Made by a program: the position numbers and the translations under genes. 64,000 nt of DNA from NCBI GenBank assembly GCA_964510655.1, contig CAZEAY010000002.1, positions 26,613-90,612 on the forward strand, written 5' to 3'. The stretch comes from an uncultured Candidatus Saccharibacteria bacterium. GTDB lineage: Bacteria; Patescibacteriota; Minisyncoccia; Phycocordibacterales; XYD1-FULL-46-19. Position 1 is the first letter of the stretch. The number at the start of each line of letters is the position of its first letter. The notes under the pieces are model-generated. The model ran no database searches. It was not told where the DNA came from and worked only from the letters and a program-made list of their open reading frames with translations. Shown piece by piece: positions 3,403 through 61,969 of the stretch.

Positions 3403-5157
3403 ATGAATATTGATCAGGATCAATTAATCAGTTTTTTAACTGATACTAAACTTGTTTCGGCTGATGATATAAAAAAATCTCAAGCTTTAGCGGCTGAACA
3501 AAAAAAGACTTTGTCGGAAATTTTAATTAGTGATGGAAAAATTTCTGAAGATGATTATCGTCGAGTGAATGCTTATCTAATTGGTATTCCTTTTGTAGAC
3601 TTAAAGACCGAAAAAATTGATAAAAGTATTTTATCTCTTATCCCTGAACCAATTGCCAGAAAACACAATATTGTCGCTTTTGGTAAAAAGGACAATGATT
3701 TGGAGGTGGCCATGCTTGATCCTCAAGATCTGGAAGCGATTGAATTTATTAAAAAAAGCTCCGGCTTACGAATTCTTCCACGTCTCACAGACACCGAATC
3801 TATTAAAAAATCCCTCGTTCAATATCAAAAGAGTTTGAAGGCTGAATTTGGCGATATTATTCAAAAGGAATCTCTAAATGTGGGCCAAGATGGGGGTTTT
3901 GACGGAGTGTCTCTTGAAGGGGAAACTGATCTGAAAAAATTGGCTGAAGATTTGCCTATTGTGCGGATTGTTGAAACTCTGCTTACTCATGCCATCATGC
4001 AAAAAGCCTCAGATATTCATATTGAAATCTATGAGAAAGAGTTGGTGGTCCGCTATCGCATCGATGGTATTTTGCATGATGCTATGATTTTACCTCGGAA
4101 CATCGCCGCTGGTATTATTGCTCGGATCAAGGTTTTGGCTAATCTTCGCCTTGATGAAAAACGTTTACCGCAAGACGGGCGATTCAAAATGGAATTATCT
4201 GATCAAAATGTCGCTTTCCGGGTTTCTATTTTACCTACTTATTATGGAGAAAAAGTTGTTATGCGTTTGTTGCCAGAGACTGTCCATGGATTTACTTTGG
4301 AAACATTGGGCTTTCATGGAGCATCTTTGGAAAAAATACATGAGGCTACTAGAGCGGCGACCGGGATGATTTTGGTTACTGGTCCAACTGGTTCGGGAAA
4401 GTCCACCACCCTCTATACTTTGTTAGAAATTCTTAACACTCCCGATGTAAATATCTCTACTATTGAAGATCCAATTGAATATCAAATACCGCGAATTAGT
4501 CAAACTCAAGTTAAGCCAGATATCGGTCTAACTTTTGCTAATGGGTTAAGATCTTTAGTCCGTCAGGACCCCGACATTATTATGGTTGGGGAAATTCGAG
4601 ATAAAGAGACCGCTAATTTGGCGATCAATGCTGCCTTGACTGGACACTTGGTTTTGTCTACTTTGCATACTAATTCCGCCGCCGGAACTGTTCCTCGTAT
4701 GCTTGATATGGGGGCGGAAGCCTTTCTTCTTGTTTCTACGATTAAAGTTATTGTTGCTCAACGGCTGGTGAGAAAGCTCTGTCCATCAAAAGAAGAGTAC
4801 CACTTAACTAAAGACGAATTGGCTAAACTATCCCTTCATGTTGACATGGACCGTGTTTTACAAATTTTGAAAGAGGAAAATATTATCGAACCTAATGTCG
4901 GTTGGGATAAGGTGCCTTTTTATAAAAATATTCCATCAGCAGAATCAAAAGATGGTTTTGCTGGTCGGGTCGGAATTCATGAGGTGTTATCTCTAACTTC
5001 TTCGATTAAAGATATGATTATTAAGGGTTTAACGACCGAAGAGATAGAATCTCAAGCTAAGAAGGAGGGAATGATGACAATGATTGAAGATGGTGTCTTT
5101 AAGGCTGTTCAAGGTATTACTACGATTGAAGAAGTGTTACGTGTCGTTACGGAGTAA
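3403..5157 (+). CDS. pilB: Type IV pilus assembly ATPase PilB / GspE family
   Basis: It has a GspE N-terminal domain, the Walker A motif GPTGSGKST and the conserved motifs LSTLHTNSAAGTVPRMLDMG and MVGEIRD. Length is 584 aa. Confidence 0.9.
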   Translation: MNIDQDQLISFLTDTKLVSADDIKKSQALAAEQKKTLSEILISDGKISEDDYRRVNAYLIGIPFVDLKTEKIDKSILSLIPEPIARKHNIVAFGKKDNDLEVAMLDPQDLEAIEFIKKSSGLRILPRLTDTESIKKSLVQYQKSLKAEFGDIIQKESLNVGQDGGFDGVSLEGETDLKKLAEDLPIVRIVETLLTHAIMQKASDIHIEIYEKELVVRYRIDGILHDAMILPRNIAAGIIARIKVLANLRLDEKRLPQDGRFKMELSDQNVAFRVSILPTYYGEKVVMRLLPETVHGFTLETLGFHGASLEKIHEATRAATGMILVTGPTGSGKSTTLYTLLEILNTPDVNISTIEDPIEYQIPRISQTQVKPDIGLTFANGLRSLVRQDPDIIMVGEIRDKETANLAINAALTGHLVLSTLHTNSAAGTVPRMLDMGAEAFLLVSTIKVIVAQRLVRKLCPSKEEYHLTKDELAKLSLHVDMDRVLQILKEENIIEPNVGWDKVPFYKNIPSAESKDGFAGRVGIHEVLSLTSSIKDMIIKGLTTEEIESQAKKEGMMTMIEDGVFKAVQGITTIEEVLRVVTE

Positions 5158-12844: not shown

Positions 12845-12987
12845 ATGAATCCCGTGGTAGAAAATCGGCCTCGTTGGGAATAAGTCTTCGGGAAACAGTA
12901 TGAAATTAATCAGTAATTACTAATTTAATAAAGATGGCATAAAAGAATCCCACCAGGATAATGCCATTTTTCACTAACGGGATGAAA
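12845..12987 (+). repeat. Conserved ~140-nt leader element, copy A (upstream of and overlapping the recJ start). It includes hairpin ATGGCAT-N20-ATGCCAT (12934..12967) and the motif CACTAACGGGATGAAA.
   Basis: It shows about 75% nucleotide identity over its whole length to 26188..26330, upstream of rplC. This includes a perfect 7-bp palindromic stem whose 3' arm contains an ATG. Confidence 0.6.
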
Positions 12988-33438: not shown

Positions 33439-33945
33439 TTATGGCCAGCTAACCTCTTGGAAGATCTCGGTTTTCTTGATTAGAGTCTCTTCCTCAATTT
33501 CTTTTAGTACTCCGTCTGTTGTGGGCTGTTGCTTACCTTGGGTGGTTTGGGAAATGGCGCAGGTCGGTGCCCCATTTTCATCGAGACTCCCGTAGTCGAT
33601 TATGTGCCAACCTTCTTTCTTTAGGGCTACAATCTCGGTAGGAGTGAGGTAGGCTCCGAGGATAATGTTAGTTCGGTTATTTTGAATGTTCATTACCCAC
33701 CAGAAGGTGTTTTTGCGGTGTTTGGCCCTACCCCAAGCGGTGACATGTCCTTTTTCCAGGTGAGCATTGGCTCGGCTGTAACTGGTGTGGACTTGTCCCC
33801 AGTTTAGCCTAATAAAGTCAGGCAAAGGGTTCGTTATGGGGCTAAGATTTTTTGTCTGTATTTCGTTGGTATCCACCAACGGCTTAGCACAACTGCACCA
33901 CAGCATAATGCCTAGAAATAAGGCTAAAATGCCTAACTTGCTCAT
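33439..33945 (-). CDS. Hypothetical lipoprotein/secreted protein (168 aa), function unknown. It may be cell-wall related.
   Basis: It has the signal peptide MSKLGILALFLGIMLWCSC (lipobox-like) and a His/Trp-rich core (HVTAWGRAKHRKNTFWW). Confidence 0.4.
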   Translation of the reverse strand: MSKLGILALFLGIMLWCSCAKPLVDTNEIQTKNLSPITNPLPDFIRLNWGQVHTSYSRANAHLEKGHVTAWGRAKHRKNTFWWVMNIQNNRTNIILGAYLTPTEIVALKKEGWHIIDYGSLDENGAPTCAISQTTQGKQQPTTDGVLKEIEEETLIKKTEIFQEVSWP

Positions 33946-43150: not shown

Positions 43151-43912
43151 ATGATTAAGCTCAAATCAGAAAAAGAAATAGAAATCCTACGTGAAGGAGG
43201 AAAACGCCTGGCTAGTATTCTTCAGGCGGTAAAAGCTAAGGCTTTGCCGGGTGTTACGACTAGTGATTTAGATGATTTTGCTGTTCAAATGATTAAAGAT
43301 TTAGGAGATAAGCCCGCCTTTAAGGGTTATCGCCCAGAGGGCTCATATTTGGCTTATCCAGCCACCCTTTGTGTTTCAGTTAATGAAGAAATTGTCCATG
43401 GTATTCCTAGTAATCGAGTCTTAAAAGAGGGAGATATTGTTAGTCTAGACTGCGGGATTATTCATGAAGGTTTGTATACTGATTCGGCGATTACCGTAGG
43501 GGTTGGAAAAATTACTCCTGAATTAAAAAAACTGCTAGCTGTAACAGAAGAAGCTCTTTATCGGGGGATTAAGTTAGCTAAGCCAGGCAATCGTTTGGGT
43601 GACATTGGAGCGGCGATCGGAGATTTTATTAAAGAAAATGGCTATGGTTTAGTGGAGGAATTGTCTGGTCATGGAGTGGGTTATAAACCCCACGAAGAAC
43701 CCTATGTGCCAAATTTTGGTAAACCAGGAACGGGTTTAGAATTGAAATCTGGTTTGGTGATTGCGATTGAGCCGATGGCGGCGATGGGGACGAGTAAAAT
43801 AAAATTGGAAAAAGATGGTTTTACCTTTTCTACTAAAGATGGAAAGCCCGCTGCCCACTTTGAACATACAATTGTCATTACCGAAACCGGTCACGAGATT
43901 TTAACAAAATAA
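43151..43912 (+). CDS. map: Methionine aminopeptidase type I
   Basis: Pita-bread fold motifs are present (metal ligands D, D, H, E, E in VSLDCG, ITHEGL... contexts). Length is 253 aa. Confidence 0.85.
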   Translation: MIKLKSEKEIEILREGGKRLASILQAVKAKALPGVTTSDLDDFAVQMIKDLGDKPAFKGYRPEGSYLAYPATLCVSVNEEIVHGIPSNRVLKEGDIVSLDCGIIHEGLYTDSAITVGVGKITPELKKLLAVTEEALYRGIKLAKPGNRLGDIGAAIGDFIKENGYGLVEELSGHGVGYKPHEEPYVPNFGKPGTGLELKSGLVIAIEPMAAMGTSKIKLEKDGFTFSTKDGKPAAHFEHTIVITETGHEILTK

Positions 43913-43937
43913 AAGTTATTAGGTTAATTATATTTTT

Positions 43938-44522
43938 ATGAAAGATCCGAAGGAAGAAATTACTTACGTCATGATTAAACCCGATGGTGTGCGAAAAGGT
44001 TTGATCGGGGAGATCATTCGCCGATTTGAACAACGTGACCTAAAGATTGTGGCTCTGGAAATGTTTCAACCTACTAAAGAAAAAATGAATGACCATTATC
44101 CAAAAGATGAAGCTTGGATTACCAGACTGGGAGGTAAGACGCTTTCTACTTACGAAAAATATGGTTACAGTGCTAAAGAAGAATATGGTACTGATGATCC
44201 AAATACTATCGGTCAGATGGTTCGTGGGTGGCTCATTGATTATATGATTTCAGCTCCGCTGGTTAAAATGGTGGTAAAAGGTACTCATGCCGTTGACATG
44301 GTGCGTAAAATTGTTGGCCCAACTTTGCCTTATGCAGCTGAGATGGGCACTATTCGTGGCGATTACTCTGTTGACTCTCCTTTGGTGGCAAACAAGGAAC
44401 GTCGGGCGGTTATGAACCTAATTCATGCCTCAGAGACTCCGGAAGAAGCAAAACACGAAATCGAACACTGGTTTGGTGACTTTAAATTGCATGATTATCG
44501 GAGGTTTGGTGTTGATGTATAG
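43938..44522 (+). CDS. ndk: Nucleoside diphosphate kinase (with an internal insertion)
   Basis: It has YVMIKPDGV.GLIGEII.RFE and the active-site region NLIHASETPEEAKHEIEHWF. Confidence 0.8.
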   Translation: MKDPKEEITYVMIKPDGVRKGLIGEIIRRFEQRDLKIVALEMFQPTKEKMNDHYPKDEAWITRLGGKTLSTYEKYGYSAKEEYGTDDPNTIGQMVRGWLIDYMISAPLVKMVVKGTHAVDMVRKIVGPTLPYAAEMGTIRGDYSVDSPLVANKERRAVMNLIHASETPEEAKHEIEHWFGDFKLHDYRRFGVDV

Positions 44523-44542
44523 TATAAGAGTTAATCTGACAG

Positions 44543-44568
44543 AAAAAGCCCTTAAATAAGGGCTTTTT
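44543..44568 (+). terminator. Terminator after ndk (aaaaagcccttaaataagggcttttt)
   Basis: An AGCCCTTA/TAAGGGCT stem with a T-tract. Confidence 0.8.
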
Positions 44569-44695
44569 CTGTGGTTATGTCTTTTCAGCATTGACTTATT
44601 GATAAAAATATGATACACTAAATAAAGTAAACAATTATGCTCTTATCGGGCATTTTTAATTTTTAAAGACCTGGTCTTTGAAAAGGAGCACAGGT

Positions 44696-45031
44696 ATGAA
44701 TCTCACACGGGTTGAATTGTTGTGTATTTTGATTTTGATTACCGCCTCTTTGTTGCTGGTGGGCAGAATCAATTCACCAAAGAAACCAGTAGTACTCGGC
44801 GGTCTTGAACCGTCAGCTGAGATGCTGATTGTTCACCCTCCTCCACCTAAGGTGAAGGATTTTCATGAGACGGCCATGCCGCGGAACACCTCCGCCTCTC
44901 TTCCTGAGATCGACCCGACCGAGGAGAAGCTGAACAAGCTGGGACTTAGTCTGGTTGGAGGTTCCACTATGAATCTGTCTGGGTTGAGTACTAATACTTC
45001 TGCCACGACAGCGTCGTTACCCGTCCACTGA
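44696..45031 (+). CDS. Small secreted/membrane-anchored Pro/Ser/Thr-rich protein (111 aa), on a high-GC islet
   Basis: An SD AAAGGAG sits 7 nt before the ATG at 44696, and an inverted repeat AAGACC/GGTCTT lies just upstream. It has an N-terminal TM helix. G+C is clearly above the window background. Confidence 0.5.
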   Translation: MNLTRVELLCILILITASLLLVGRINSPKKPVVLGGLEPSAEMLIVHPPPPKVKDFHETAMPRNTSASLPEIDPTEEKLNKLGLSLVGGSTMNLSGLSTNTSATTASLPVH

Positions 45032-45087
45032 CCCGATGATTATCATTTGGTCATAAATTTCACCCCGTTGAAGATAAGGAGCTCACG

Positions 45088-46245
45088 ATGAAGCGGAGTT
45101 TGTTGGGATTGCTTTTCCTGGCCCTGTTTTTGGGACAGATGTCCTGGGCGGTGGAGCTTACGGCTCCCAAGCCCATGACCACTGATACGATTGACGTGCG
45201 CAACATTGCGCGCGCCATCCTGTCTCATCAGGATACTGTTGCCTACAGTGGTAACTTCGGCTACGAAGTGACCCATCTGGATGGTAATGTGGTTTCGACA
45301 CAGGGCACGTTTGAGGGGCGTTATTTCCCCAAAGACGGTCGGGAAATCTTTATGTTTACCGCATTGTCGGTATCATACGACGGGAAGAACCCCATCATTT
45401 ACACCGGTGATCCGTTTGAGGTTTTTCCCTATCCGATGAAGGGGACGGCGAAAAATCTCTGGATCGGAATCAATGGTTTCGACCAGAACGGCCAACCGAC
45501 TCGCTATGGCTCTTTCGCCACCTCAGTGTGGGAGAAAGGTCAACCAATCATCTTTGGAATGAGGCCTGGCTATCTGCCGGTGATCATTCCTTTCAGTTTG
45601 AATGGTCGAGACCCAGCCGGTGTGGGTTTGATCATTGATGGTTGGGGTGGAGTGCCCTTTGGCTATAGCTCAGACCGTGGAGGTTTTGTGGCCTGGCTCG
45701 ACCCATCCACGTTGTACGGCGGTCGAGTTGTCGACTTGTTCAATGGACAGGCGACAATTTTGACTATCCCCAGTTTCAGTTACGGTGATCTGCCATCTTC
45801 AACTGAACCACGTGGTAGCATCGCAAACTTTCAGTGGGAAAGTGGCGTGAACTCGATTAAGTTCGAGAAAGGCTTCTACGACCCTCGTGGCGATGGACAT
45901 TACAATACGTCCATTGTTGAGGAGGGGAAACTTGTCCCGGCCGCAGTGTATATTGTGGAGCCGGGAGATCTGCAGACTTCAGCTCTGTACGGTGCCTTGT
46001 TGGACTTCGCTGGGCGGCTTCAAATTGAAGTTTTTACCGCTCCCGGCCAACGTCTGGTACTGTTGGATAAGTCGTGGAGTAGTCCTTCCCAGGTTCTCAA
46101 CTTTGAGGTGCCGGCCGGCTATCATTCGGTTATGATTACCGTGACCAAATCGAACGGTCCGGTGGCTATTCCCGAATGGTATGTCTGGGACCCGAACAGG
46201 TTTTACCTGATGGTGGGACGCAGTGGCCAGGGTGGAAAGGGCTAG
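45088..46245 (+). CDS. Secreted protein of unknown function (385 aa, signal peptide), on a high-GC islet
   Basis: An SD TAAGGAG sits 6 nt before the ATG. It has the signal peptide MKRSLLGLLFLALFLGQMSWA. G+C is about 50-55% by eye, versus roughly 38-40% for flanking genes. Confidence 0.6.
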   Translation: MKRSLLGLLFLALFLGQMSWAVELTAPKPMTTDTIDVRNIARAILSHQDTVAYSGNFGYEVTHLDGNVVSTQGTFEGRYFPKDGREIFMFTALSVSYDGKNPIIYTGDPFEVFPYPMKGTAKNLWIGINGFDQNGQPTRYGSFATSVWEKGQPIIFGMRPGYLPVIIPFSLNGRDPAGVGLIIDGWGGVPFGYSSDRGGFVAWLDPSTLYGGRVVDLFNGQATILTIPSFSYGDLPSSTEPRGSIANFQWESGVNSIKFEKGFYDPRGDGHYNTSIVEEGKLVPAAVYIVEPGDLQTSALYGALLDFAGRLQIEVFTAPGQRLVLLDKSWSSPSQVLNFEVPAGYHSVMITVTKSNGPVAIPEWYVWDPNRFYLMVGRSGQGGKG

Positions 46246-46295
46246 TGTCTGAGCCATTGTTCTTTGTTCTAATTAATCGGCCGATATGTTCGTTT

Positions 46296-46330
46296 GCCCG
46301 ACCAAGCTTTGCTCTGGTCGGGCTTTTTTT
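46296..46330 (+). terminator. Terminator (gcccgaccaagctttgctctggtcgggcttttttt)
   Basis: A GCCCGACCA...TGGTCGGGC stem with a T-tract. Confidence 0.75.
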
Positions 46331-46634
46331 ATCGGAGTGCGGTGTTTGAAAATCCCGACGGCTTGGCTGCGGAGATAGGACACAAAATCTGTTTTTATTA
46401 AATATGTTTTCTGCGGGCGGTAATAATTTGTTTATTTTTTTAATTGGTTTTTCACTGCTGTCGTTATATAATTGAACTAAGGTTGCTTGGGGTATTATCT
46501 AGACTATTTGTTCTTTTAGGGAGATTTATATTGCCGTTGGATGATGACGAAAGCATTTATGTAATTGTCTGACTCCACTTCGGTTGCGGTCACCCACCTA
46601 GCAAGAGCTAGGGTAAGCTCCAAGTAACCTTAAG

Positions 46635-46666
46635 AAAAAACCGTTTATTTAATAAGCGGTTTTTTC
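46635..46666 (+). terminator. Hairpin with T-tract (aaaaaaccgtttatttaataagcggtttttt)
   Basis: A CCGTTTATT/AATAAGCGG stem flanked by A- and T-runs. It closes the 46340-46630 noncoding block. Confidence 0.6.
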
Positions 46667-46711
46667 TTGGGAATTTTGATTTTACCTGGTTTATTGTTAC
46701 AATTTAAGACA

Positions 46712-47143
46712 ATGTACCGAAAATGGCTTTTATTGGCTGGGGTGATGGATCTTTTTATCCTAAGTATTTTGGATAAAATTGCTTATCAATATTATCTGTA
46801 TTGGCGTTATCCGCAGTTTGATATTCTGATGCATTTGGTAGGTGGCATCGCCATTGGCTTAGTGTCAGCCTATGTGTATTGGTTATGGCACAGAGAAAAG
46901 GAACCAGAAAAAACGCGGAGTGAAATTGCCGTGGTTAGTTGGAGGTTATTTTTCTTGCTTAACTTCGGCTTTATTTTAACGATTGGTCTTGGTTGGGAAG
47001 TCTTTGAATTATTCGTTGACCGAATTGTTGCTTTTAGCCCTTTAAATATTTTACGAGATTTGTTTTTCGGAATCATTGGTAGTTTATCAGTTGGATTATT
47101 TGTCTTATGGATTCACAATCACAAACTAAAGAAGTTAAAATAA
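46712..47143 (+). CDS. Hypothetical integral membrane protein (about 4 TM). The start is placed at ATG 46712, because the ORF-track start 46667 is a TTG.
   Basis: Hydrophobic segments are present. Its 3' end overlaps the next gene by 37 nt. Confidence 0.45.
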   Translation: MYRKWLLLAGVMDLFILSILDKIAYQYYLYWRYPQFDILMHLVGGIAIGLVSAYVYWLWHREKEPEKTRSEIAVVSWRLFFLLNFGFILTIGLGWEVFELFVDRIVAFSPLNILRDLFFGIIGSLSVGLFVLWIHNHKLKKLK

Positions 47144-48537
47144 CTTTTTGTGGCGGTACCGAAAGTGTGACCGGTGCTAATTTTTTATTGGAAACGGAAA
47201 TGGGCGGTAAGACCCTGCGAATTTTGATAGACTGTGGTCTTTTTCAGGGTTCTAACAAGGATGAAAAGATGAACCTGGAGCCTTTGCCTTATGATCCTAA
47301 GACCATCGATGCGGTTTTTATTACTCATGCCCATATGGATCACATTGGCCGTTTACCTCTTCTGGTTAAACAAGGTTTTACTGGTCCAGTTTATTCCACC
47401 CCACCAACAAAGGAAATTTCTGATGTTTCTTTTGCTGATACTATTGGCCTAATGGAACGGGATGTGCGCAATAGCCAGACTGATAAAAATCATAAAGACA
47501 ACAAGCATGTTGAGGTGACAGAGGCACTTTATGGAGCAAAAGATGTCACTGTTTTAATGAATCAGTGGGAGACTGTTGGCTATCATCAGCCGATTAAAAT
47601 TGGTGATTTTACGGTTATTTTACGAGATTCCGGTCATATTTTAGGTTCGGCGATGGTGGAATTTAATTATAACGGTAAGAAAATTTTGTTTACGGGCGAC
47701 TTGGGTAACTCGCCAGCTCCACTGTTGAAAGATACTGAGGTAGTAACCGATGCCGATTATTTGATTATGGAAAGTGTGTATGGCGATCGCAATCATGAGG
47801 ATCGGGGAGAGCGCCGGGATAAACTTGAGGATGTCATTGAAGAAACCATGCGTAAGGGTGGAGTCTTGCTCATTCCCGCTTTTTCTATTGAGCGGACGCA
47901 GGAGCTTCTTTATGAGATAGAAAATATGATGGAAAACTCGCGTATTCCGCTGGTGCCCGTTTTCCTCGATTCTCCGATGGCGATAAAAGTGACGGAGATC
48001 TATAAAAAATATAGCGATTATTTAAACAAAGAAACTAATTCCGTGATTAAGGGGGGTGATGGTATTTTCCATTTCGCCCAGTTTCGTGAGACAATGTCGA
48101 CTAACGATTCTAAGGCGATAGATGAATCGAATAGTAAAAAAATTATTTTAGCTGGTTCCGGCATGTCTAATGGTGGACGAATTATTCACCACGAGAGAAA
48201 ATATTTGCCCGATGCTAAAAATACGATTCTCTTGGCAGGCTATCAGAGTGTGGGCAGTTTGGGTCGCTTGATTCAGGACGGAACCCGAGTGGTGAAAATT
48301 TTAGGAGAAGATATTCCTGTCAACGCTAAGGTAACTAGTATTAGTGGTTATTCGGCTCATAAAGATTCCGACGGCTTATTTGAATTTGTTCATAATACTG
48401 TCGATAAGGTTAAAAAAGTTTTTGTCGTGATGGGCGAGCCTAAGTCCTCACTGTTTTTAGTCCAGCGTTTGCGTGATTACTTGGGAATTGATGCGGTGGC
48501 ACCTAAGTATCAAGAAACTTTCAAGATCGAGCTTTAA
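47107..48537 (+). CDS. MBL-fold beta-CASP family ribonuclease (RNase J / CPSF73-like RNA-metabolising metallo-beta-lactamase)
   Basis: The MBL motifs are ILIDCGLFQG and HAHMDHIGRLP. A beta-CASP region (LFTGD..., ESVYGDR) and a C-terminal RMMBL-like segment (SGYSAHKDSDGL) follow. Confidence 0.7.
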   Translation: MDSQSQTKEVKITFCGGTESVTGANFLLETEMGGKTLRILIDCGLFQGSNKDEKMNLEPLPYDPKTIDAVFITHAHMDHIGRLPLLVKQGFTGPVYSTPPTKEISDVSFADTIGLMERDVRNSQTDKNHKDNKHVEVTEALYGAKDVTVLMNQWETVGYHQPIKIGDFTVILRDSGHILGSAMVEFNYNGKKILFTGDLGNSPAPLLKDTEVVTDADYLIMESVYGDRNHEDRGERRDKLEDVIEETMRKGGVLLIPAFSIERTQELLYEIENMMENSRIPLVPVFLDSPMAIKVTEIYKKYSDYLNKETNSVIKGGDGIFHFAQFRETMSTNDSKAIDESNSKKIILAGSGMSNGGRIIHHERKYLPDAKNTILLAGYQSVGSLGRLIQDGTRVVKILGEDIPVNAKVTSISGYSAHKDSDGLFEFVHNTVDKVKKVFVVMGEPKSSLFLVQRLRDYLGIDAVAPKYQETFKIEL

Positions 48538-57288: not shown

Positions 57289-57669
57289 CTATGGGGAGTT
57301 TTTTTTGATCATCTCGATGATGAAGTAAGGCACCTCGTCTTTACACACGGCTTGATTGCAACCACCCACATTGATGAGTTCGGTTCTCTTGCACTCATCA
57401 CAAGAGGCGGCGATCATAAAGCAGTGAGGGTTTTGCTGGCGAATGTCTTTGGCCAGCTCGGTTGTCGTGCGTCCCCCAGGGACATTTCCGTCGAGGATAG
57501 CGAAATCGATTGGTTCATTGTTCCTGATGATTGTTTCAGCCTCCATTATGTTGGAAGCTTCGAGGACATCGATGGGCTTTCCTGAGCTCTTCAGAATCAT
57601 CCGACACAAGTCTCGGATGCACTGATCGTCCTCAACAATCAAGATGACGGACCTTTTTGCCAGACCCAT
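57289..57669 (-). CDS. Orphan response-regulator receiver (CheY-like REC) domain protein with a Cys-rich C-terminal region
   Basis: ILIVEDDQ carries the phospho-acceptor-site context (D in FAILDGNVPGG). A 4-Cys tail follows (CFMIAASCDECK...GGCNQAVC). An SD AAAGGAA is present, and GC is higher. Confidence 0.6.
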   Translation of the reverse strand: MGLAKRSVILIVEDDQCIRDLCRMILKSSGKPIDVLEASNIMEAETIIRNNEPIDFAILDGNVPGGRTTTELAKDIRQQNPHCFMIAASCDECKRTELINVGGCNQAVCKDEVPYFIIEMIKKNSP

Positions 57670-57866: not shown

Positions 57867-58721
57867 ATGATTGGTTCAAATGAACGGTCCCTGGAACTAG
57901 GAGAAAAGCCAAATTGGCTAGCAGCGATTCCTTTTATGATTGTTAATCTGTTAGGGATTTATGGCCTGCGTTATGTTTTTACGAGTTGGTCGGTCGCGGT
58001 GGTAATGATCTCTCTTTATTTTGTCCGGATGTTTTTTATCACCGGATTTCAGCATCGGTATTTTTCTCATCGGTCATTTGTCATCACTCCGCGTTGGGGA
58101 GAAAAATTTGTTCGCGGGGTGCAGTTTCTCATGGCTCTGCTGGTTACTTCTTCAGCACAAAAGGGTGTCTTGTGGTGGGCGTCACATCACCGTCATCATC
58201 ATAAACATTCTGACACGGAAGAAGATGTCCACTCTCGTTTCTTGCGCGGATTTTACTGGTCGCATCTGGGTTGGATTTTGTGTCGTCGTTTTGATAAAAC
58301 CGATTCTCGTCTAATTCCCGATTTGGTTCGTTTCCCTGAATTGGTTTTCTTGGATCGACGACTGGGCTATCTAATCATGCCTGTTGTTTTGAGTCTTGTC
58401 TGTCTGTGGTTCGGTGGCTGGCCCATGTTGTGTGGAGGGTTTTTTACCAGCACCTTCTTTCTCTACCACGGGACATTCTCGATAAATTCTCTGGCCCACA
58501 TGTGGGGGACGCAACGTTATCAAACGGGAGATCAGAGTCGTAACTCACTTTTGTTGGCGATTATAACTATGGGGGAAGGTTGGCATAACAACCATCACTT
58601 TTCTCCTGGTTATGAACCACAAGCTCTGACTCGTTTCGAAAAATGCTTTGATTGGACCCACCAGATTTTGTATCTCATTAGTTTGACTGGGCTGATTAGT
58701 CTTCGGACAAAAAAAGCTTAG
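57867..58721 (+). CDS. Membrane acyl-CoA/acyl-lipid fatty-acid desaturase (delta-9-like, three His-box family)
   Basis: The His boxes are HRYFSHRSF, HHRHHHKHSD and HNNHHFSP. There are 4 TM helices. An SD TAAGGAG sits 10 nt before the ATG. Confidence 0.8.
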   Translation: MIGSNERSLELGEKPNWLAAIPFMIVNLLGIYGLRYVFTSWSVAVVMISLYFVRMFFITGFQHRYFSHRSFVITPRWGEKFVRGVQFLMALLVTSSAQKGVLWWASHHRHHHKHSDTEEDVHSRFLRGFYWSHLGWILCRRFDKTDSRLIPDLVRFPELVFLDRRLGYLIMPVVLSLVCLWFGGWPMLCGGFFTSTFFLYHGTFSINSLAHMWGTQRYQTGDQSRNSLLLAIITMGEGWHNNHHFSPGYEPQALTRFEKCFDWTHQILYLISLTGLISLRTKKA

Positions 58722-61196: not shown

Positions 61197-61896
61197 TATT
61201 TATAAGCGAGTCGGGGAAACTCCTCTGGAAGTGATTGAACGAATCCGGGTTAAGTTCCCGGATTTTTCAACTGAAAAAATGACTTATGCTGGGCGGTTAG
61301 ATCCAATGGCTGAAGGAGTGCTAGTCGTGTTGGTAGGGGAAGAATGTAAGAATAAGGAGAAGTATCTTGGTTTGGATAAAGAATATGAAGTGGAATTTTT
61401 GCTAGGAGTAGGGGCGGACACAGGAGATGTGATGGGTTTGGCACAATTATCTGAGGTAAAAAAAGAATTTACCTCATCAGAACTTGTCTCAGTTTTAGAT
61501 TCTTTGATTGGTAAAAAGAAACAAGTTTATCCAAAATATTCTTCCCCTATATTGGCTGGTCAGTCTGGAAGTTTTAAAGAAGTAGAAATAAAAAGTCTTA
61601 AATTTTTGAATCAGCAAAAAATTTCATCTAGCGATCTTTTAAACGAAATAAAGAGAAAAATAGAAATGGTAAATGGAGAATTTCGTCAGGCGGAGATTGT
61701 TGAACGATGGATAAAACTTTTAACCAAGGAACATTTTTTTACCTTGGTTAAATGTCGAGTATTTTGTACGAGCGGTACTTATATTCGCGTTCTAGCTGAA
61801 GATTTGGGTAATAAACTGGGAACAACTGCTTGCGTCTATTCTCTAAAAAGGATAAGGGTGGGTGATATTAAAGATGGTGATTGTTTGAGATTTTAG
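61171..61896 (+). CDS. truB: tRNA pseudouridine(55) synthase TruB
   Basis: It has the catalytic-Asp context GRLDPMAEGVL. It overlaps the ftsH 3' end, so the true start may be slightly downstream. Confidence 0.7.
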   Translation: MALKPKSFNIYKRVGETPLEVIERIRVKFPDFSTEKMTYAGRLDPMAEGVLVVLVGEECKNKEKYLGLDKEYEVEFLLGVGADTGDVMGLAQLSEVKKEFTSSELVSVLDSLIGKKKQVYPKYSSPILAGQSGSFKEVEIKSLKFLNQQKISSSDLLNEIKRKIEMVNGEFRQAEIVERWIKLLTKEHFFTLVKCRVFCTSGTYIRVLAEDLGNKLGTTACVYSLKRIRVGDIKDGDCLRF

Positions 61897-61969
61897 TGCA
61901 TGCGCCTGGACTCGAACCAGGGACCAGTCGTGTATAAGACGACGGCTCTACCAACTGAGCTACGCATGC
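61897..61969 (-). tRNA. tRNA-Ile with anticodon UAU (decodes AUA). CCA is not encoded.
   Basis: The reverse complement folds as a canonical cloverleaf: acceptor GCATGCG/CGCATGC, D-arm GCTC-AGTTGGTA-GAGC, anticodon stem GTCGT/ACGAC with loop C-U-UAU-A-C, and T-arm CCTGG-TTCGAGT-CCAGG. Confidence 0.8.

Follow-up and report, generated by a model that had tools for sequence, protein, structure and literature searches.

How did a pair of GC-rich genes, each led by a Shine–Dalgarno (SD) sequence, come to be maintained in a bacterium whose other genes are started almost entirely without one? The question is raised by an islet in a 64,000-nucleotide stretch of DNA from an uncultured Candidatus Saccharibacteria bacterium (GenBank assembly GCA_964510655.1, contig CAZEAY010000002.1, positions 26,613 to 90,612 of the forward strand), which we refer to in its full length as the window. 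The islet lies between ndk and a conserved structured non-coding RNA (ncRNA) and consists of a small gene encoding a predicted membrane protein and a large gene encoding a predicted secreted protein of 385 aa. The candidate phyla radiation (CPR), or Patescibacteria, makes up a large and mostly uncultured share of bacterial diversity, and both the attachment of its members to hosts and their translation start are poorly understood. We consider it fairly probable that the islet is an accessory surface-binding module with its own expression cassette, that it evolves fast, that Paceibacteria exchange its alleles at a hot spot for insertions and that selection maintains its SD sequences.

The two genes differed in composition from the rest of the window. 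Their GC content was 0.497 (small gene) and 0.524 (large gene), compared with 40.4% for the whole window, and their GC content at third codon positions (GC3) was 0.542 and 0.585. These GC3 values correspond to z = 4.4 and 5.4 relative to the other 58 long open reading frames (ORFs) of the window (GC 0.405, standard deviation 0.026; GC3 0.344, standard deviation 0.045). When GC was computed in segments of 500 nt, the richest segments of the whole 64 kb were those covering 45001-46000 (0.514 and 0.520), and the runner-up reached 0.478. Both genes are preceded by AAGGAG at a canonical distance from the ATG. A well-placed SD-like motif was found at 5 of the 63 window genes versus 1.37 expected by chance (p = 0.012), and four of these five genes hold the top four ranks of GC3. 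An earlier sequence-only reading of this DNA had pointed to the raised GC content, to the canonical SD at both genes and to the atypical character of SD sequences in this genome, and our measurements agree with it on all three. The remaining SD-led genes of the window encode a secreted 168-aa protein of unassigned function (GC3 0.53), a receiver-only response regulator (GC3 0.61) and a fatty-acid desaturase, which is sixth in the ranking and has a mildly raised GC3 (0.44, z = 2.1). No homology was detected among these three genes or between any of them and the islet.

Abrupt GC changes at both borders are what would be seen if a fragment of a GC-richer organism had been joined into a CPR contig during assembly or binning. 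Other sequencing runs gave two independent Logan assemblies that match the window at 100% identity (43538-46012 and 44567-45664), which excludes mis-assembly at the left junction. The right junction was seen only in assemblies of relatives, in the same gene order, and at least four relatives, assembled independently, share the succession of ndk, module, ncRNA and DUF2238 gene. Moreover, the borders fall at terminators and promoters rather than at read-length artefacts. We regard the probability of an artefact as negligible.

We also searched for relatives of the islet proteins. Only three close homologues of the 385-aa protein (45-48% identity) were present among 5.8 billion proteins. A profile search with HMMER over 1.84 billion cluster representatives found 97 members of approximately 340-410 aa, aligned over most of their length. 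A metagenome scan for the module added two loci, and an alignment-based word-index protein search returned almost no further members. A scan of GTDB genomes with two peptide patterns gave no relative, a weak negative given how narrow the patterns were. In all 12 genomic contexts examined, a small membrane ORF (90-121 aa) lay immediately 5' of the large gene; all 12 looked like CPR/Paceibacteria and had SD-less, leaderless-type neighbouring genes. The gene pair is an undescribed family of approximately 97 sequence clusters, found only in CPR/Paceibacteria-type contexts.

What the members share extends upstream of the coding sequences. The order of elements 5' of the pair is constant: the terminator of the preceding gene, a promoter, a hairpin followed by a U run, the CTTTGACA motif and the SD. 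It was kept even in the locus whose protein is only 23% identical (L102; homologous loci are cited by such numbers). In 1.58 Mb of Paceibacteria DNA, the composite leader pattern matched only 5' of the module, apart from five matches of a different arrangement in ordinary terminator-plus-promoter sequences. An SD was present at 14 of the 18 module start codons across hosts, compared with approximately 2-5% by chance (p = 1.5e-15). Of the four starts without one, that of L092 had been mis-called, and AAGGAGG precedes the true ATG there. Judged from these sequences, the SD of the module is under selection.

The hosts start their other genes differently. An SD-like motif at proper spacing preceded 2.25% of 1468 ORF starts in 64 Paceibacteria loci, with genes called as longest ORFs, and the background at random positions was 2.30%; therefore there is no SD usage in the host class. 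When the window and the 64 loci were surveyed for -10 boxes, 14% of starts had one 5-9 nt upstream compared with 3% of random ATGs (4.7-fold, p = 1.6e-78). Of the 63 window genes, 12 had a -10 box close to the start, and TATAAT, often as TGnTATAAT, stands 6-8 nt before the ATG of operon-leading genes, for example at 3403, 10503, 17354, 22930, 42544, 46712, 56394 and 62056 (minus strand). Because the -10 box sits 5-9 nt before start codons, the operon-leading genes are probably leaderless. The anti-SD motif has been reported in only 48% of Parcubacteria, its absence overlapping the group that lacks uL1 (PMC9297842), and Paceibacteria have been described as lacking rplA (PMC12641178). The 3' end of 16S rRNA was contained neither in the window nor in any fetched locus. 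If the carriers truly lack the anti-SD, AAGGAG would have to be read by a non-canonical mechanism.

The sequence-only reading had offered, as its alternative, a distinct regulon translated in another mode. The conserved SD of the module, its conserved leader and the SD-less host class lend support to that proposal. By analogy with bacteria discussed at the end, we tentatively raise the possibility, which we would not yet call probable, that Paceibacteria have two initiation regimes: a bulk of leaderless or SD-less mRNAs, and a few accessory secreted-protein mRNAs, with the module as their clearest example, that depend on an SD and a structured leader. In such a scheme, translation of the SD-led set might be confined to certain conditions or to one state of the ribosome, in the manner of the bS21-controlled rpsU.

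We then asked where the module resides and how long it has been there. The window comes from a member of the Paceibacteria (CPR) with a tiny genome. Its SecY is 75-79% identical to that of Patescibacteria/Vogelbacteria metagenome-assembled genomes, and the 80 best loci were all of Paceibacteria-type CPR. The module occupies the site between ndk and the ncRNA in at least five lineages (the window, L101, L010/L011, L093, L006-L009 and L096). It was found elsewhere in three loci, namely by an ornithine/diaminopimelate (Orn/DAP) decarboxylase gene (L001), before the L33 gene (L092) and between trmD and rpoB (L102). None of 80 related species representatives carried it, most of them keeping the order secY-adk-map-ndk ... 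DUF2238, RNase-J-like, LDcluster4. The ndk-ncRNA site was empty in L015, L050 and L065 and held a different cargo of two ORFs in L018 (13706-14946). Because the site is empty in some relatives and holds other cargo in L018, it is an insertion hot spot. One ORF of that other cargo encodes 127 aa and is, by reading of its sequence, a candidate PemK/MazF-like protein; the other encodes 223 aa and has a higher GC content (0.53).

The sequence-only reading had called the islet a horizontally acquired cassette whose donor uses SD-dependent initiation and may be the host of an episymbiont. Taken as a recent gain, this would mean a GC-richer donor that is not a CPR member, with GC content and SD sequences as donor traits not yet ameliorated. 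The joint deviation of GC, GC3 and SD, the absence of the module from the 80 species representatives and its location in a hot spot all fit such an origin. Several observations speak against it. At least five lineages carry the module at this one site, and their flanking genes are synonymously saturated, with a proportion of synonymous differences (pS) of 0.68-0.87 across carrier lineages (0.68-0.79 when the window is compared with its nearest syntenic relatives). All 12 contexts examined are CPR-like. The amino-acid identity of the module was 43-56% in every pair, the copy in an unrelated context included, compared with 72-95% for the flanks; because the homologues are only this similar to each other, there is no recent common donor copy. 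Searches of phages (INPHARED), plasmids (PLSDB) and viruses (IMG/VR) yielded no relative, and there is no sign of an origin outside the CPR. We therefore judge a recent gain from outside the CPR very unlikely. What stands of the cassette proposal is an accessory insertion that is atypical in composition, patchy in distribution and discordant with its flanks in phylogeny; a recent gain from an SD-using donor is not supported. The proposal was right in kind and wrong in age, and probably wrong in the donor as well.

The module evolves much faster than its surroundings. In comparisons of the window with its nearest syntenic relatives, nonsynonymous divergence (dN) was 0.44-0.51 for the module and 0.04-0.10 for the flanks. 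In neighbour-joining trees with bootstrap, built on saturated sequences, the module proteins joined L006 with L093 at 98%, whereas the flanks grouped the window, L010 and L093 against L006 at 100%. The ndk tree joined the four carriers included in it (the window, L010, L006 and L096) at 88%. We read the conflict between the sequence trees as a sign either of lateral replacement of alleles or of long-lived allelic lineages at a conserved locus.

Next, the composition of the module was compared among hosts. The module GC was 0.50-0.52 in the window, 0.52 in L001/L003 (on a background of 36-40%), 0.59 in L094 and 0.54 in L102. The GC content of the hosts spans 36% to 53%, with a nearly constant third-position composition of the module: third-position A was 0.11-0.16 in all hosts (host values 0.14-0.35), and third-position C and G together were 0.52-0.66. 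The module equalled its host in composition only in L095, with 52% GC, and came closer to it in L006, with 49% GC. The relative synonymous codon usage of the window module correlated at 0.67 with the host genes of L006, one of the GC-richer Paceibacteria, and at 0.39 with those of its own host. Because synonymous sites have become saturated in the time that the site has been occupied, the GC3 excess is not left over, un-ameliorated, from the first insertion. Either alleles arriving from GC-richer Paceibacteria bring it in again, or selection maintains it. The module of L095 has no GC excess and is still SD-led among SD-less neighbours, and therefore the SD belongs to the module itself and does not depend on GC. 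In L001 (613-4777) and L003 (299-4463) the module was part of a larger GC-rich (0.49-0.52), SD-led block in a genome of 36-40% GC, together with a 267-aa protein and an Orn/DAP/arginine decarboxylase gene; low-GC, SD-less housekeeping genes follow abruptly.

These results could also be explained by a strictly vertical, lineage-specific module whose GC-rich codons, leader and SD are kept purely by selection, with no lateral exchange, and whose mRNA is one of a few that are specially regulated and depend on an SD, in an organism where mRNAs are otherwise leaderless and SD-less. This explanation would lead one to expect that SD, leader hairpin and CTTTGACA motif persist even where protein identity has fallen to 23%, and it also fits the SD of L095 and a third-position composition that stays constant despite saturated synonymous sites. 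It does not account for the conflict between the module and flank trees or for the copies at unrelated sites (L001, L092 and L102), and we know of no mechanism that selects GC3 across a whole gene. We consider it unlikely. Exchange of alleles among Paceibacteria, which we prefer, has points against it as well. It rests on one strongly supported conflict in trees of saturated sequences, and old allelic lineages or rate artefacts could mimic such a conflict. Selection alone could keep the GC-rich codon usage constant. No integrase or transposase gene, tRNA gene or flanking direct repeat was found within 43900-47200. The restriction to CPR draws on 12 contexts out of approximately 97 clusters and, for GTDB, on the two narrow patterns. 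If a host lacks the anti-SD, the SD could not work there by canonical pairing.

The features of the islet and of its surroundings are collected in the table.

Table. Coordinates of the islet, its expression signals and other features of the window
Feature	Position	Strand	Remarks
Small gene	44696-45031	+	111 aa from ATG; a TTG at 44678 would lengthen the ORF
Large gene	45088-46245	+	385 aa; predicted secreted all-beta protein with signal peptide, two beta domains and C-terminal GGKG
SD of small gene	44683-44688	+	AAGGAG, 7 nt 5' of ATG; kept across homologous loci
SD of large gene	45076-45081	+	AAGGAG, 6 nt 5' of ATG
ndk intrinsic terminator, left islet boundary	44539-44572	+	16-bp perfect inverted repeat ACAGAAAAAGCCCTTA/TAAGGGCTTTTTCTGT, then T run
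Module promoter	44591-44619	+	TTGACT, 17 nt, TACACT; upstream TG makes an extended -10; promoter scan
Leader hairpin	44637-44662	+	ATGCTC-TTATC-GGGCAT and U-rich run; terminator-like; terminator scan
Second small inverted repeat	44665-44679	+	AAAGAC-CTG-GTCTTT; overlaps the conserved motif (C/T)TTTGA(C/A)A
Conserved leader motif	44674-44681	+	window form CTTTGAAA, consensus GGACTTTGACAA; about 85 bp 3' of the real -35
Module intrinsic terminator, right boundary	46296-46330	+	GCCCGACCA, 10-nt loop, TGGTCGGGC, then T7
ndk	43938-44522	+	194 aa
Structured ncRNA	46479-46672	+	between islet and DUF2238/RNase-J-like genes
SD-led secreted protein gene	33439-33945	-	168 aa
SD-led response regulator gene	57289-57669	-	receiver only
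SD-led fatty-acid desaturase gene	57867-58721	+	
tRNA-Ile	61896-61969	-	UAU anticodon

The sequence-only reading had placed both genes between two terminators and behind a promoter TTGACT-17-TACACT. The terminators are those of ndk and of the module itself, and the promoter was recovered by a promoter scan. A terminator equivalent to that of ndk lies 5' of the module also in L010, L093, L006, L096 and L101. The module terminator was read from the sequence, its 10-nt loop exceeding the limit of the terminator scan; nucleotide similarity to L010 resumes only 3' of it, at the conserved ncRNA. The promoter pattern TTGAC(T/A)-17-TGnTAnAnT could be aligned in 9 module loci and is present in L101 and L102 too, and transcription is predicted to start near 44626.

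The leader that follows the promoter contains a hairpin and U run that the sequence-only reading had overlooked. The hairpin was predicted in the minimum-energy fold of 9/9 leaders, in which the stem sequences vary and the pairing is kept, and hairpin and U run were found in L101 and L102 as well; the z-scores of the leader folds were only -0.75 to -2.1. It is a probable attenuation point with a putative regulatory role. We recognised no antiterminator pairing, leader peptide, T-box or riboswitch aptamer in the leader of approximately 70 nt, and Rfam searches at the gathering threshold and at E up to 10 gave nothing credible, the best matches being terminator look-alikes. A tiny ORF starting from an AUG within the hairpin was considered and dropped, as neither its length nor its presence is conserved.

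An inverted repeat that had been placed over the promoter in fact lies approximately 46 nt downstream of it, in the 5' leader just before the SD. It overlaps the conserved motif, whose consensus GGACTTTGACAA was found 2-25 nt 5' of the first SD in 12 module loci (the window, L003, L006, L010, L092-L096, L098, L101 and L102). In minimum-energy folds of the window, L006 and L094 the SD is paired with the U-rich part of the motif, as it would be in a fourU-type RNA thermometer, where a weak hairpin occludes the SD; the folds of L010, L096, L095 and L003 lack this pairing. The motif resembles a -35 element (TTGACA-like), and we considered it as a second promoter; this reading was dropped because no -10-like hexamer follows it at 16-18 nt in any locus.

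What the two genes encode was approached through sequence features and a predicted structure. Searches of Pfam, NCBIfam, PHROGs, PADLOC and PDB sequence profiles assigned no family to either islet protein, in agreement with the lack of recognisable domains in the sequence-only reading; in Pfam there was no match for the large protein of the window and none that was consistent among 25 family members. Both N-termini are hydrophobic, as had also been noted. That of the large protein (MKRSLLGLLFLALFLGQMSWA|VE) has a positive region, a hydrophobic core and a small-residue cleavage motif and is thus signal-peptide-like (signal and membrane calls were made from sequence features). A hydrophobic signal-like segment (12-mer) was present at the N-terminus of 67 of the 70 aligned members of the large-protein family, and their C-termini carry [KR]-G in 38/70 and GKG in 24/70. 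In the small protein, a single membrane helix at the N-terminus is followed by a low-complexity linker and, at the C-terminus, by the conserved motif EEALNKMGLTKxGG (also written EEKLNKLGLSLVGGSxxNLSGL). A single hydrophobic helix was found in 9/9 small proteins, and an N-in/C-out topology is suggested because the N-terminal flanks are positive in most homologues.

AlphaFold2 gave a model of the large protein with a confidence score (pLDDT) of 85 when 70 sequences were supplied, and an unusable one (pLDDT 48) with 4 sequences. The predicted fold resembles single beta-sandwich domains only: the C-terminal domain of Clostridium perfringens enterotoxin (C-CPE), the ColG/ColH collagen-binding domain and the pre-peptidase C-terminal (PPC) domain. 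No match spans the whole protein (query TM-score approximately 0.2), and the N-terminal domain had no specific match. A search of the large protein against viral folds (BFVD) gave only generic tail-fibre-like beta-sandwich noise. Variation of the large gene by a diversity-generating retroelement or other repeats was also considered and rejected: no repeat of at least 14 nt links the gene to its flanks, neither template nor variable repeats were found and no reverse transcriptase gene is present. Given the predicted fold and the sequence features, the two products most likely form a cell-surface binding (adhesin-like) complex.

Taken together, the region from approximately 44.54 to 46.33 kb would be a self-contained accessory operon inserted between the ndk terminator and the conserved Paceibacteria ncRNA. 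It would be transcribed from its own extended -10, sigma-70-type promoter into a leader with a probable attenuation point, in which the conserved CUUUGACA element directly precedes a canonical SD. Each of the two cistrons has an SD, and the operon has a terminator of its own. The first product would be a signal-anchored small membrane protein exposing its conserved C-terminal motif outside the cytoplasm, and the second a Sec-secreted, two-domain all-beta protein with one domain like ligand- or receptor-binding beta-sandwiches. The module changes 5-10 times faster than its neighbours, and its alleles would be swapped among Paceibacteria or persist as old lineages. Its GC-rich codons and its SD would be properties of its own, kept in every host, and not un-ameliorated traces of a transfer from outside the CPR.

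The ncRNA on the 3' side of the islet was characterised separately. A promoter of its own (TATATAAT) lies near 46466 and its terminator at 46629-46671. The ncRNA is 88-92% identical to its counterpart in L010, above the coding flanks at approximately 78%. A covariance model detected it in 27-29 Paceibacteria loci, whether or not they carry the islet, and its place was always 3' of ndk and 5' of a DUF2238 or beta-CASP gene. In an alignment fitted to the model, 93.5% of cells were paired, 13 of 17 pairs showed compensatory changes and the covariation score was 0.454 versus at most 0.109 for slid controls. The segment CACCCACCUAG is invariant and CUAGGGUAA nearly so. For the ncRNA, neither the gathering threshold of Rfam nor a cut-off of E up to 10 gave anything credible. 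A role as leader or regulator of the RNase-J-like operon is possible.

Other observations concern the surroundings of the islet and the rest of the window. The NDK of the window matched its Pfam model in two stretches, which suggests an internal insertion relative to typical NDKs, conserved in relatives. In L101 a 119-aa gene with Pfam matches to 23S_rRNA_IVP/bAvd lies between map and ndk (396-755), just 5' of the module. The starts at 12961 and 26304 have a nearly identical sequence directly before the ATG, GATGGCATA(A/G)(A/G)AGA(A/G)TCCCA(A/C)C(A/C)GGA(C/T)A, which may be a shared leader element. The window also encodes a tRNA-Ile with a UAU anticodon, which is unusual in bacteria.

The module offers a concrete, conserved test case for translation, an SD-led operon in genomes with zero SD signal otherwise, and it bears on whether the reduced ribosomes of CPR bacteria have retained SD-dependent initiation for a specialised use. 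The encoded pair is a candidate surface-binding factor of the type expected at the interface between symbiont and host or symbiont and phage. The hot spot and the new covariation-supported ncRNA could serve as landmarks in Paceibacteria genomes.

The module can be compared with several known systems. With the atypical gene islets at hot spots ('atypical genes' of GeneMarkS-2, PMC6028130) it shares deviant GC content and codons, patchiness, varied cargo at the site and a discordant tree. It differs from them in having no integrase, tRNA or flanking repeat, in its shared and conserved promoter and leader, and in a site that has long been occupied without drift in composition; its exchange partners are apparently other Paceibacteria. 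The leader resembles intrinsic-terminator attenuators in having a GC-rich hairpin and U run at a conserved position between promoter and first SD. Unlike known attenuators, it is only approximately 70 nt long, has no Rfam match and shows no recognised antiterminator or sensor. The likeness of the large protein to the C-CPE, ColG/ColH and PPC domains lies in the beta-sandwich fold of one of its domains; in contrast to those proteins, it has no Pfam membership and no pore-forming or catalytic module.

By analogy, the closest precedent for the SD-led islet is rpsU of the SD-blind Bacteroidia such as Flavobacterium johnsoniae, where SD usage is near zero and a few genes have a strong, conserved SD (PMC9976891, PMC7797042, PMC13000453). 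Such a pattern, shared by the islet, implies that these genes are initiated or regulated in a specialised way. The Bacteroidia possess an anti-SD, which is sequestered by bS21, bS18 and bS6, and their SD-led gene is ribosomal and autoregulated, whereas the genes of the islet encode accessory proteins that are predicted to be secreted.

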